Position numbers and translations under genes: made by a program. The notes beneath the pieces are model-generated. The model did not search any database. It saw only the letters and a list, made by a program, of their open reading frames with translations, and was not told the origin of the DNA. Below, in pieces: positions 48,324 through 52,546 of a DNA stretch of 64,000 nt. Origin of the DNA: Cirrosporium novae-zelandiae (lineage: Eukaryota); the NCBI GenBank assembly GCA_026023565.1, contig JAPETS010000034.1:248001-312000 (forward strand). The letters are read 5' to 3'. Each line of letters opens with the position of its first letter. The stretch's first letter is position 1.

Positions 48324-49738
48324 TCACCCCTCCCTAACAAGCGTAACTCTCCCGCCCTTCTCCCCCTCATCCCGAACCTTACACCCCCTCTCAAGGGCCA
48401 ATTCGCAAAGCCACCGCAGCACGCCCTTGGCACAAGCCTCCTTGGCTGCTTTCTTGCCACTGATATGTCGCACCTCGCCGTAGGGGCCTGGGAATTGGAA
48501 TTCGTGGGTGAAATAGGCGGCGCCGCTGTGGAGGGAGGGGACTATTGGGTTGTCGGGCTTGATGCGGTATTCTGGGGGTGGGAGGCCGAGGAGGGGGCAG
48601 AGTTCTGTGGGTGGGGTTAGTTAAATGTGGGGGGTAAGGGTATAGTTTTGAGAGGGAAGGAGAGGGGACGACTTACGATTGACCCTCTGTGCATAGCTGA
48701 CTTCCTTTTTCACAGAAGGGATTCCGACAGACGACAGTGGTGGTGGAATATCATCCCCCAGAGAAGGCTGACGTCTATGTTCATGACTGTGTTCGGGGCC
48801 CGACTCAGACGAGGGCACCGGACATTTATCGACCTTCTTAGCTGTCCCAAGCTTTGCTTTCTTCTTTGCCGTCGTGAGGTCCTCAGGAATGTGGCCATTC
48901 TCCACGAGCCAGAGGACCGCTTCGCGGGCTGCGGCAGTCTTAGCGGCTCTTTTGCTGGGGTATTGCGTGTCCCTACTACCGAAGGACTTGAATTCTGGGC
49001 TGGAGGGTTGGCCCAGGGAGATTGTGAGTTCCATGGAGAAGGTTTTGGTGTTTGGGATGGTAAAGGCATTGTAGACGGGATGAGGGAGGGACTTTTGTTG
49101 CACCCATTCTGTGGGATGGTAAGTAAGAAATATAAGACGCCCCGCGTGGAATATCAAGCGGTGGAAAGTTGATACGGGTGGAGTCTACCTTGCAACTTGC
49201 CAATCCAATTCTCCTCGGTCCCTGCCTTAGATCCCGATCCCTGACTCGCCGTCTCGGTCCTCCTCTCCAAAGCCTCTATGCCTTTTATAGAAATCGACCC
49301 CTTTGCATCCTTCTTGCTCTGGTACGGGCCCTCATCATTTAATTCCTCCACGCCGAGTCGAAGTTTCACGGAGAACCGTTGCTGGGAGACTTCCTCAAAT
49401 CCAAAAACGGGTATGATGCCTTGTAATTGAGCGAGATGGTTGAGGCGTGCAACAGCCTCGGGGTTGGCACCTTTGGATCTAGGTGATAAGGGCACTGGCG
49501 TTTTGCTGGGGGAATGCGTGGGCGAAATTTCGCTCAGAATTTGCTGAATGTCTTCGCGGGCAAGGTAGGTGGCGACGTCGGGATATTCTTCTTTTGAGGT
49601 TTTCGGTGGAGATGGCTTCTGCGAGGAGGATGCCATAACCGGCGTTCTTTTGGAAGAAAAGTTCGCCTGTTGTGGTGAGCAAGGGGATGGCTGAGAGGAA
49701 GATGGTGAAATGAGGCTTTTCATAAGGTCTTCCCCCAT
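48324..49738 (-). CDS. Protein with three double-stranded-RNA-binding motifs (dsRBD)
   Basis: Three units: AVARLNHLAQ...SKKDAK; WIGKLQEWVQ..P.Y...SKRAAKTAAAREAV; YAQRVNQLC..LPPPEY...GKKAAKEACAKGVL. Introns 49109-49188 and 48605-48676. Confidence 0.82.
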
Positions 49739-50688
49739 GGTTGCTAAACTGCCTGTAATAGCCGTCCTAGACAACGCAATTGAGTGGATATCTGAACAAT
49801 TCGTAGGCCTAGAATAGCAACAGAAAAGGGCCAATGAAAGCTAAAAGAATCATTCAATATTCAGCGATAACAAGGAGTGTGGTAATTTGAAACAATGCTA
49901 AACTACAGTTCCATGCATGTAATAAGATAACCATAGTGTAGCAAGCAAATTTTTAAAGAGGCAGAAGAAAGAAGACAAACAATTGGCGAAGGCTATTGCC
50001 TCAACTACATACAAATTGTGAAGGGCTTGGGGTAATGACTTTATAACGAGGGGGAAGGAGTGAATATAATATAATACCTTCTCGACTTATGCCAAGTTCC
50101 TATTCTCGCTACTTGTACTGTTCTAAAGATATAAGTAGAGCCTAATGATTGATAAAGCTTGCTTATTTCTGTTATGGGTGTTTGGAGTGAAGCTGGAGGC
50201 ATGGATTTGTCGTGGTACCTATTGGACAATTAAGTGACTTTTCGATGACGAAGTTCGGAACGTGCGGGGGTGTCAATGTATCAATTTACATTTATAATTA
50301 CAATTTAATTACACCACCTTCTTTCCTTAGACAGCCACTAAATCATGTCTTAAGTTTATCGGACCCTAGCAGATGATATCAAGATATTTATTATATTGAG
50401 CTTAACAAATGCGCCAAATTACTAATGAATACTTGAGTAAAAAAAAAATATCCAGCTAGTACTATCTAGTTTTAATATAGTATTGAACCTGCGTATCATG
50501 CCCATGAAGCCGTAATGTACCTCCCACTCTTGTCGCAGAGAGCGCCGTTAGGGCTTAAACCTGAGGTCATTGTAGTAGCAGTGCGGGGAGAATAAGACAT
50601 AGATAGCACAGGTAATATTAGCAGTATCCTTGGATCCTTCCAGTAACAGTGACTTCAAGACATGACTCACATTAAGGGAAAAAGAGAA

Positions 50689-51089
50689 GAGAATCATCGT
50701 CCCACACCAGAGTAATCAGAATCGAATGATACCGTCACCTCCCCTCAAAAGAGAAGAGGTTTGGCACGCTGCGTATTGCACTAAAGTGCGAACATAGCAC
50801 ACAATCTTCGCAACGGCTCTCCCATAGGGACAACCCAGATCATCCTTAACCCTCCGAAGAGGTTATAAAGAAAGCAGGCAGCCCTGAATCTCTGATGCCA
50901 ATTGCAGACGTGAATCACGCCAGGCCCTTACGGGCAGTACCTGCGCACTTCTTTCAAAGGCGGTGGTGTAAGGTGAAGATTACTCCGAATTTCTCATTTG
51001 CATTCTGTAAGGCTCTCTCGAGAGAGGATAACTCGAAAGCTATCTGTTGGTAGCAAAGAAACGCAGCGTTGGGTGGGACGACGAAACTC
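50689..51089 (-). ncRNA. RPR1: Nuclear RNase P RNA (~400 nt)
   Basis: Minus strand shows P1 (GUCGUCCCAC 51073-51082 with GUGGGACGAU 50696-50705), P2 (CGCUGCGU 51061-51068 with ACGCAGCG 50767-50774), P3 loop ACAGA strands, CR-I GAGAAAUUCGG (50985-50995), CR-II AUCAGAGAUUCA (50885-50896), CR-III AUGGGAG, CR-IV AGUGCAAU (50775-50782), CR-V CGAUUCUGAUUAC (50712-50724). P4 AAUUCGGA/UCUGAUU is compensatory relative to the recalled yeast AAUUCGGU/ACCGAUU. GUAA and UUCG tetraloop hairpins; U5 run downstream. Confidence 0.93.
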
Positions 51090-51404
51090 TTGAAGAGAAG
51101 AAAAGAAAAAGAAAAGAGAATAGAAAGGCGATGTTGAAATGGGTCTTTAATATTTCTACAGCCTAGGGCTCGGCTAATAAAATTCTGCCCAAGGCAACTC
51201 CAAGTCGGTGAGGACATAGATCCAAGCCTCAACACCAAGGCTTCTACTTCTACTTCATACCTATGCATTTCTTTGCTGGTCAATATTGAAATCTACAAAA
51301 GTTGCTTTTACACCATGAATATTAACATCAATTCTGAATTTTTATTAAGCTTTTAAAAAAATCATCCCGGCCATATCTCATCATCATCACCAATGAACAT
51401 GAAT

Positions 51405-52546
51405 CTAATCTCTTGGTCCCTCAATCAATGTCTTGATGCCCTTTCCTTCCTTGACCGTCTTAAACGCCTCTTCCGCTTGCTCAAATGAAACCTTGCCTGT
51501 AATTAATTCCTTAACACTGACTCTGCCTGTGGTCAACATGTCAACAGCCAATGGCCAATCTCCACTGAAGTATCGGAAGCTGCCCTTGATGATGAGTTCC
51601 TTGCAGCAAGCAGCCATAATAGGGAAAGTAATGTCAGCGGCGCCCATACCGCCTTGGAGGTAGGTACCTCCATTCCTGACTGCGTGAATCGATGTTTGGA
51701 TGCATGATTCAACACCGGTAGCATCAACAACAACGTCGGCACCAGGGCCTAAATTGTTCTCCTTGACCAATCGGGCCGCATTCTGCTGTGGGGTTTCATC
51801 CCTCGATGAAATGAAGCTGGAAGTTGCAGCGTATTTTAGAGCAAAATCCAATCGATGTTTCTGGATGTCGCAAGCAATGATCTTAGAAGCTCCAAAGGCC
51901 TTGGCGCATGCCATAATAAGTAGACCAACTGGTCCACATCCAAACACCACAACGGAATCTCCTGGCTTCACAGCTGCTTGCCGGGTAATATGGACACCGA
52001 TAGCGAGGGGCTCACACAAAGCACCCTCCTCAAGACTGACGTGATCTGGGAGCTTGTAGCAGAAGTCCTCGGGAAGCTTGTAGTATTTGGCGAGGGTACC
52101 ATCATATGGTGGGGTAGCGGCGAATGCCATGTCGGGGCAAAGGTTGTAGAAGCCATCCTTGCAATACTTGCATCGTCGGCAAGGAACACCAGGCTCCATG
52201 CAAACACGGTCACCAACTTTCAGGGATTTGACAGCAGGCCCAACTGCGTGGACGATACCGGCAGACTCATGGCCGAGGACCATGGGATCTTTCACGACAA
52301 AATCGCCAATGGCACCATGGGTCCAGTAGTGAACATCACTGCCGCAAATACCGGTAACCTTGACTCTGATGATGACCTCGTGGGGATCTTTGATCTCAGG
52401 AACTGGCTTGTCCTCGTATTTGACGTTAAAGACCGAGTGAAGCACAAAGGAAGGGTTCTGGATCAAATACATGTATTGTTAGCCTTTCTTCGGTAGATAA
52501 ATTGGGAGCTATTGCAATGAAAGTTCCAATGTACCTGTCCAGCCAT
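51405..52546 (-). CDS. xdhA: Zn-dependent xylitol/sorbitol dehydrogenase (D-xylulose reductase)
   Basis: Exon 1 MAGQ then [18 protein letters not shown], structural Zn CxxCxxC..C, GCGPVG, GSFRY. Confidence 0.9.

Follow-up and report, generated by a model that had tools for sequence, protein, structure and literature searches.

RNase P RNA is a textbook transcript of RNA polymerase III (Pol III). In budding yeast, Pol III transcription of the RNase P RNA gene RPR1 depends on A and B boxes located in a 5' leader and terminates in a T run, while the RNase P RNA of insects derives from an intron within a host gene that RNA polymerase II (Pol II) transcribes. To our knowledge, spliceosomal cleavage as a route to the 3' end of an RNA is known only for telomerase RNAs. 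In the present study, we analyzed a stretch of 64,000 nucleotides from Cirrosporium novae-zelandiae (GenBank assembly GCA_026023565.1, contig JAPETS010000034.1, positions 248,001 to 312,000 of the forward strand; hereafter, the window), in which the minus strand carries an RNase P RNA gene followed by a 5' splice site (donor) and a strong branch site. The two signals were found to be conserved behind the RNase P RNA in related loci, which suggested that the 3' end of this RNA may be released by the spliceosome.

The telomerase RNAs of fission yeasts and Aspergillus acquire their 3' ends by spliceosomal cleavage (PMC4299874). Splicing is described there as stalling after step 1 in one of three ways: a strong branch site whose 3' splice site lies far away, a GUCAGU donor, or an AU donor (PMC4299874). 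Kannan et al. noted in 2015 that computational searches for other substrates were hampered, and left open whether telomerase RNA is unique or the first of a group (PMC4299874). The literature on "spliceosomal cleavage" since 2015, judged by titles and the first lines of abstracts, nearly all concerns telomerase or mentions telomerase briefly in a citation. We found no paper linking RNase P RNA to splice signals or to spliceosomal cleavage in a search that left subscription journals and supplements outside. The cassette behind the RNase P RNA, present in dozens of fungi, represents a second candidate substrate, and one that is abundant and easy to assay.

The RNA in the window, taken for an RNase P RNA in the initial annotation, is an ascomycete nuclear RNase P RNA on the minus strand and is probably encoded by an independent gene. 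With the relatives aligned, the full RNA was placed at about 51091 to 50687, a length of about 405 nt, and the conserved regions CR-I, CR-IV and CR-V stand in the correct order for a nuclear RNase P RNA. Folding of 51095-50685 paired the bases from 51083 onward with those up to 50693 (minimum free energy, -154.1 kcal/mol; z, -5.4; 0 of 100 shuffles as good), and the relatives bore out this pairing. We then used RNAalifold on 25 sequences, which included the window and were picked for diversity among those with a mapped P1. The consensus contained 64 pairs, 33 of them with compensatory double changes, and covariation was seen in P1, P2, the base of P3, P4 and the specificity-domain helices. P1 comprised 13 pairs, 11 of which had double changes in 1 to 11 of the 25 sequences, and P2 comprised 8 pairs. 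The P1 duplex formed in all 50 loci tested, with a dG of -24.8 to -38.4 kcal/mol.

This gene is missed by standard annotation. At the gathering thresholds, Rfam returned no match anywhere in the 64-kb window. In E-value mode, the full RF00009 model (1-301) was aligned to 51023-50700 on the minus strand with 23.8 bits (E, 8.9e-5), compared with a gathering score of 28. The alignment misplaced P1 to P3, reading part of P3 as P1 and squeezing P3 to 7 nt, and because of this misreading the gene fell below the gathering score. When 20 related loci were given to Rfam, 12 scored 32.3-47.2 bits over the whole model.

Relatives were collected by scanning metagenome contigs with an exact CR-I 19-mer. 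At least 109 loci were obtained, 80 of them with up to 2 kb of flank. The 73 sequences, window included, that contained CR-V and at least 250 nt of 3' flank were grouped into 57 clusters at 97% identity, which are referred to below as the 57 non-redundant loci. RNase P RNAs in the sample were about 50-77% identical to each other, and the best matches to the window were about 69-77% identical over the RNA.

In the window, P1 is followed by a pyrimidine-rich trailer with a U5 run (50683-50679), a GTGAGT donor starting at 50670, and the branch motif GCTAAT (50622-50617), after which no AG occurs between branch A 50618 and the CAG at 50563-50561. These features agree with the initial annotation. 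The donor had been placed about 19 nt after P1; with the RNA ending at 50687, it starts 16 nt after P1. Sequences that occur by chance are reported to be spliced in Neurospora (PMC4408805), and such signals at a single locus would be weak evidence. GCTAAT is the 3' half of a 13-mer, GGATACTGCTAAT, which occurs once in the 64-kb window; with up to one mismatch, 0.22 occurrences would be expected per window, and 18 of 100 shuffles contained such a match. Statistics of this kind on one sequence are not convincing, and the argument for function is built on what the relatives conserve.

A donor-like word, GTNNG[TC], started 25-45 nt after CR-V in 50 of the 57 non-redundant loci, compared with 12.6% of random 21-position windows from the same loci. 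The commonest donors were GTGAGT (14), GTAAGT (7), GTATGT (4), GTCAGT (4), GTTCGT (3), GTACGT (3) and GTAGGT (3), followed by others. The pattern of variation is illustrated, although not tested, by a MAFFT alignment (A1) of 36 of the 57 sequences chosen for having a donor, near-duplicates being omitted. In this alignment GT and the G at position +5 were invariant, and positions +3 and +4 were variable, with at least 17 donor hexamers among the loci. Trailers between P1 and the donor averaged 82% pyrimidine, and the longest T run in the trailer ended 0-11 nt before the donor (51 loci).

The branch-site 13-mer was also conserved. GGATACTRCTRAY was found exactly in 35 of the 57 loci and with at most one mismatch in 44, compared with 3.1% of random windows, a figure that includes the true sites. 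Within the 109 loci (252,354 bases, both strands counted), we counted 41 exact occurrences of GGATACTRCTAAY, every one of them behind CR-V. The donor GTNNG[TC] and the 13-mer with at most one mismatch occurred together in 43 of the 57 loci. In the 37 loci used for measuring distances, 28-88 nt (median, 37) separated the donor from the start of the 13-mer. In alignment A1, two positions of the 13-mer were invariant and seven more were at least 90% conserved; the branch core varied as CTRAY. Part of the 13-mer, GGAUACURC, is complementary to GUAGUAUCU, which we take to be a conserved stretch of U2, in a register shifted from the canonical URCUAAY pairing. The way in which donor and branch site vary is that of splice signals and fits recognition by small nuclear RNAs (snRNAs).

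To compare the signals with the RNA itself, we used the 493 most diverged pairs of sequences (identity of the RNA body, 0.50-0.70). The 13-mer was 0.88 identical and the donor 0.76, values that are inflated by the choice of the 37 loci for having both, against 0.64 for the RNA body. In the same pairs, the spacer between the signals (0.43) and the 120 nt after the 13-mer (0.48) were at background. A few loci departed from the common form in one signal: L048 carries the 13-mer with a GTAAGA donor, L011 and L013 have good donors with the variant branch site GGACRTGCTAAC, and L016 has GTAAGT and no 13-mer. The compact signature of U-rich trailer, GTNNGT, about 40 nt and GGATACTRCTAAY is searchable behind other non-coding RNAs.

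The conservation of donor and branch site behind the RNase P RNA supports a spliceosome-dependent 3' end and, indirectly, transcription by Pol II. We consider it somewhat more probable than otherwise that Pol II makes this RNA and that the spliceosome releases its 3' end, in the manner of telomerase RNA. The initial annotation had put forward Pol II transcription with spliceosomal release, and the conserved signals support this in part; the mechanism itself we infer from sequence. Transcription by Pol II would begin with the first P1 base, just after a CT-rich promoter, and would continue through the pyrimidine- and U-rich trailer into the donor and then about 50 nt on into a very strong and unusually conserved branch site. 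A spliceosome assembled there would carry out the first transesterification, cutting at the 5' splice site after 50671 and freeing the RNase P RNA as the 5' exon. The freed exon, with its trailer of about 16 nt, would then be trimmed by exonucleases toward the U run or the end of P1. The exons would not have to be ligated, and ligation would probably be hindered, given how strong the branch site is and that no good 3' splice site lies nearby. By analogy with yeast pre-RNase P RNA, and with what has been described for TER1 (PMC13303942), Lsm2-8 or La might bind the terminal U run.

The proposed pathway resembles that of Schizosaccharomyces pombe TER1 (PMC4299874) in several respects. In both, the donor lies just past a structured non-coding RNA and is preceded by a U- or pyrimidine-rich element, the branch site is strong (UACUAAC type), and no functional second exon is needed; the distance to the AG is also long in the window (57 nt). 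In contrast to TER1, the RNA here is RNase P RNA, the branch site lies inside an invariant 13-mer that exceeds the U2-pairing heptamer, the long spacing is not conserved, and a canonical Sm site (AU3-7G) was found in only 2 of 51 trailers. The telomerase RNAs with an AU donor probably belong to the same organism group and share the order of pyrimidine-rich motif, 5' splice site and branch site. There, however, the second step is blocked by AUAAGU or AUACGU, whereas GT is invariant in the 36 sequences of alignment A1, so that another way of stalling would be needed, or none. In the TER1 RNAs of Schizosaccharomyces cryophilus and Schizosaccharomyces octosporus, a GUCAGU donor over-stabilises the pairing with U6 (PMC4299874). 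GTCAGT or GTCAGC was found in 5 of the 57 loci; since most loci use GTGAGT, GTAAGT or other donors, stalling of the GUCAGU type is not the general mechanism. For stalling after step 1, the only general candidate would be a branch site that is strong and extended, combined with the lack of any selected 3' splice site. Among RNase P RNAs, the gene shares with budding-yeast RPR1 the RF00009 family and a T-rich stretch after P1, and differs in having no leader, no B box (0 of 50 loci), a CT tract that abuts P1, and splice signals past the T run. Insect RNase P RNA would have Pol II in common with the RNA described here, but lies inside a host intron, whereas here the RNA would be the 5' exon of its own gene with the intron behind it. 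The coordinates of the features are given in the table.

Features of the RNase P RNA locus in the window (position 1 is the first base of the window; all features are on the minus strand)
Feature	Position	Strand	Remarks
TATA-like TATTAAA	51146..51152	-	55-61 nt upstream of the inferred first base
CT-rich tract	51092..51128	-	abuts the P1 start; resembles a filamentous-fungal Pol II core promoter plus initiator (TC/AAG, slash marking the P1 start); putative promoter role
RNase P RNA	50687..51091	-	P1 5' strand to P1 3' strand
P1 5' strand	51072..51091	-	pairs with 50708-50687; inferred 5' end, A 51091
P2 5' strand CGCUGCGU	51061..51068	-	pairs with 50774-50767; RNAalifold columns 28-35 with 493-500
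P3	50994..51060	-	basal stem 51060-51053 with 51001-50994, plus a variable distal part; columns 37-43 with 105-112
CR-I / P4 5' strand	50978..50995	-	Rfam alignment, RNAalifold; invariant block
CR-IV AGUGCAAU	50775..50782	-	Rfam alignment, RNAalifold
P2 3' strand	50767..50774	-	pairs with 51068-51061; RNAalifold
CR-V / P4 3' strand	50710..50727	-	Rfam alignment, RNAalifold, relatives' alignment
P1 3' strand	50687..50708	-	pairs with 51091-51072; duplex prediction, RNAalifold
Pyrimidine-rich 3' trailer	50671..50686	-	between P1 and donor; U5 run 50683-50679
5' splice site GTGAGT	50665..50670	-	starts 16 nt after P1
Branch-site 13-mer GGATACTGCTAAT	50617..50629	-	branch A 50618; GCTAAT 50622-50617 is its 3' half
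First AG (CAG) after the branch site	50561..50563	-	57 nt from branch A; possible, unconserved 3' splice site

The region past the branch site bears on whether the putative intron is removed completely. In the 37 loci, the first AG at least 8 nt past the branch A lay at a median of 24 nt (range, 9-122), with the 57 nt of the window near the long end. The long branch-to-AG distance of the window is, given the family median, not a family feature. The initial annotation had proposed to look in relatives for a conserved donor, branch site and long spacing; the first two were found in 43 of the 57 loci and the third was not. We rejected a long branch-to-AG distance as a general stalling device, since the spacing to AG or YAG in the family is short or resembles that of shuffled sequence. 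The base before the first AG was G in 17 loci, A and C in 8 loci each, and T in 4 (G in shuffles, 0.20), and the pyrimidine fraction between branch and AG was 0.55. Across the 3' flanks of the relatives we found no conserved YAG or 3' splice site and no conservation past the branch site. No 3' splice site is under visible selection, and good ones may even be avoided, with the reservation that the loci are related. The downstream neighbours also differ, and in at least 7 loci a convergent open reading frame stops 120-250 nt after CR-V. With nothing conserved past the branch site and with differing neighbours, a conserved second exon or host gene is excluded. The suggestion that the RNA could be the first exon of a longer transcript toward the downstream gene found no support.

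The convergent frame was seen in L004, L015, L018, L030, L048, L058 and L063, and its block in several more loci; it is the downstream neighbour of the RNase P RNA in many relatives, though not in the window. Its predicted C terminus is conserved (...LLFQH..L.HSGDDV..G.K.T.RTD.MY...).

These data were then weighed against complete splicing of an ordinary intron. The RNase P RNA would in that case be the first exon of a spliced, polyadenylated Pol II transcript; other nucleases would excise it from this transcript or from the precursor before splicing, and the role of the intron would lie in expression or quality control and not in making the 3' end. In favour of this reading, canonical donors are combined with strong branch sites, the pyrimidine-rich stretch of the window ends in a CAG 57 nt past the branch A, a YAG stands within 30 nt of the branch A in 12 of the 37 loci, and little information is needed for splicing in Neurospora (PMC4408805). 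The sequence itself thus does not forbid complete splicing. Yet the family conserves no 3' splice site, polypyrimidine tract or second exon, identity past the branch site is at background, and the first AG is GAG or AAG in 25 of the 37 loci. The differing neighbours and the convergent gene ending 120-250 nt after CR-V in at least 7 loci also speak against a second exon, and ligation would bury the 3' end of the RNase P RNA, which would then have to be made in another way. We consider complete splicing unlikely, while giving it real weight.

We then analyzed the 5' flank and the T runs for indications of the polymerase. In nearly all loci, P1 starts straight after a CT-rich sequence ending in TC, its own first bases being AAG, and there is no 5' leader; pyrimidine hexamers were the commonest words at -120 to -1 (49 loci). 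In the window, TATTAAA (51152-51146), the CT-rich tract (51128-51092) and the U5 run before the donor are all present, as had been reported. The TATA element is not conserved as such, with TATAWA present no more than 60 nt from where P1 begins in 7 of 50 loci. None of 50 loci contained the B box GGTTCGANNCC, even with one mismatch allowed, and the A-box-like words present in 8 of the 50 lay scattered (we searched with what we take to be the consensus strings of both boxes). The GTTCGAAGGAT-like words that precede the 13-mer were considered as a hidden B box and rejected; they occur in one clade only and do not match the B box at up to one mismatch. The longest T run in the trailer was 3 in 5 of 50 loci, 4 in 9 and at least 5 in 36 (range, 3 to 18), so that T runs do not exceed 4 in 14 of 50 trailers. 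In L003, L012, L015, L049, L058 and L063, the splice signals are kept behind runs of T8-T10, and Pol III should not pass runs of 8-10 T. Inside the RNA, a T run of at least 5 was present in 10 of 50 bodies, one of them T10, with no clear depletion relative to shuffles (mean, 14.3; standard deviation, 3.1). tRNA genes, sought as a local control for Pol III terminators, were found neither in the window nor among the 109 loci. The lack of a leader and of a B box, the CT tract and the signals behind T8-T10 runs favour Pol II, short of proof.

A further alternative is an ordinary Pol III gene whose transcription stops at the T run in the trailer. In this case, the GT motif and the 13-mer could be, for example, elements of the DNA associated with promoter or terminator, or a fail-safe on rare read-through transcripts. 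Pol III makes RNase P RNA in vertebrates as well as in budding yeast. The U6 gene of budding yeast carries a promoter element past its terminator, and the U6 RNA of fission yeast, which Pol III transcribes, contains a spliceosomal intron. Trailers with a T run of at least 5, as expected of such a gene, occur in 36 of 50 relatives and also in the window. Against it stand the 14 trailers with no such run, the 0 of 50 loci with a B box, the scattered A-box-like words, and the internal runs of 5 to 10 T in 10 of 50 bodies. The elements moreover vary like splice signals and unlike a protein-binding site in DNA, and a rarely used fail-safe would not be expected to keep the 13-mer above the conservation of the ribozyme body. 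Termination by Pol III with such accessory elements appears improbable to us.

It was also considered that the U1 and U2 small nuclear ribonucleoproteins (snRNPs) may be recruited without chemistry, steering the transcript into another Pol II 3'-end pathway by termination, endonucleolytic cleavage or protection from the exosome. Such binding would produce the same pattern of conservation with no 3' splice site, and the extended 13-mer exceeds what normal branch-site recognition needs. The invariant G at +5 and the CTRAY core with its branch A, however, are what catalysis needs, and we know of no fungal precedent. We therefore give little credence to recruitment alone. A chance juxtaposition of splice-like words in one genome, which the single-sequence statistics of the window would allow, is refuted by the arrangement at a fixed offset in 43 of the 57 loci and by the position of all 41 exact 13-mers behind CR-V, and can be dismissed.

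Several observations weigh against release of the RNA by the spliceosome and are collected here. The loci were chosen by a common exact 19-mer and are related, so that the counts do not represent independent events, and the identities of donor and 13-mer carry the selection noted above. The T runs of at least 5 in 36 of 50 trailers resemble Pol III terminators, and the U5 run of the window could itself terminate Pol III. The rarity of the Sm site sets the trailers apart from TER1. The donors are canonical and a YAG is near the branch A in the 12 loci mentioned, while the median distance to the first YAG (43 nt) is no different from that in shuffles (median, 30; range, 17-50). Some loci have no such signals: L001, L032 and L043 carry T runs (4, 9 and 18, respectively) and a common GGGTAAC word with no donor; L009, L014, L026 and L038 carry a different downstream element; and L002 (with L067), L046 and L047 have neither signal. 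Transcript pieces from four sequencing runs (each 0.04 of sampled words) were 24-47 nt long and fell within 50799-51126, none of them over 50561-50700; they represent RNase P RNAs of other organisms and have no bearing either way on expression or splicing. The joints among these pieces, with sides of 20-25 nt, are artefacts of cross-species alignment. Short RNA contigs from two metatranscriptome runs match CR-I.

The exceptions differ in kind. In L043, about 250 nt separate an RNase P-like RNA (L043:1-488) from the 3' end of a eukaryotic large-subunit rRNA gene (about 600-1050, 401.8 bits); the RNA has T18 after P1, no donor and no 13-mer, and this locus may represent a different lineage with a Pol III-type gene beside the ribosomal DNA. 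L009, L014 and L026 have GTTGGC or GTTAGC followed by GTGCTGACTACGAACC, and L038 has a similar element without the GT; in this clade, GGTTGGC, GGTTAGC or GGCTGGC and a conserved block containing CACCTGTACGTGGTGCTGACTACGAACC take the place of donor and 13-mer. The contigs of L002 and L067 begin inside the RNA and have a purine-rich repeat after P1, and they are uninformative. L047 is an assembly chimera in which the RNase P RNAs of two species stand head to tail next to unrelated AT-rich sequence; it was left out of the argument on the 3' end and kept as a miss among the 57. At the start of L094, a permuted 58-nt repeat of the locus's own 3' domain is fused to the end of the P1 5' strand, and the sequence stops 9 nt beyond a GTAAGT donor; this locus was likewise left out of that argument.

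Taking release by the spliceosome as the preferred reading, we tentatively extend it, with a confidence slightly short of even, to a large group of filamentous ascomycetes in which RNase P RNA would have left Pol III. In the same proposal, the element would offer U2 snRNA two overlapping registers, one being URCUAAY with a bulged A and the other a shifted 9-bp GGAUACURC duplex without a bulge. If release by the spliceosome holds, RNase P RNA would be the first RNA besides telomerase RNA to be matured by spliceosomal cleavage, and an essential ribozyme would have switched polymerase within the fungi. RNase P and telomerase RNAs, which already share Pop proteins in yeasts, would then share a biogenesis route in these fungi as well.

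Other features of the flanks and neighbours were also recorded. Upstream of P1, ACAAAA/CAAAAC occurred at about -31 to -50 (13 loci), and about 20 loci contained the Gcn4/AP-1-like word GAGTCA/TGACTC(A) between -23 and -57; one clade had GCTACAAAACCCC near -37, and GCGCTAGCG was present in about 10 loci. These recurrent words may be promoter elements specific to the RNase P RNA gene. L031, in which donor and 13-mer are present, has a T10 run about 244 nt into the RNA body that is hard to square with transcription by Pol III.

The downstream neighbour in the window lies about 870 nt beyond the RNase P RNA, at 48621-49840 on the minus strand. The initial annotation had called it a gene for a double-stranded RNA-binding domain; the second of its open frames matched the Pfam family Dicer_dimer below threshold (16.7 bits against a cut-off of 23.7), and the first had no match. 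The upstream neighbour, which ends at 51405, is a zinc-dependent gene of the sorbitol/xylulose-reductase type (Pfam ADH_N and ADH_zinc_N), and its nearest Atlas cluster is mostly Ascomycota.

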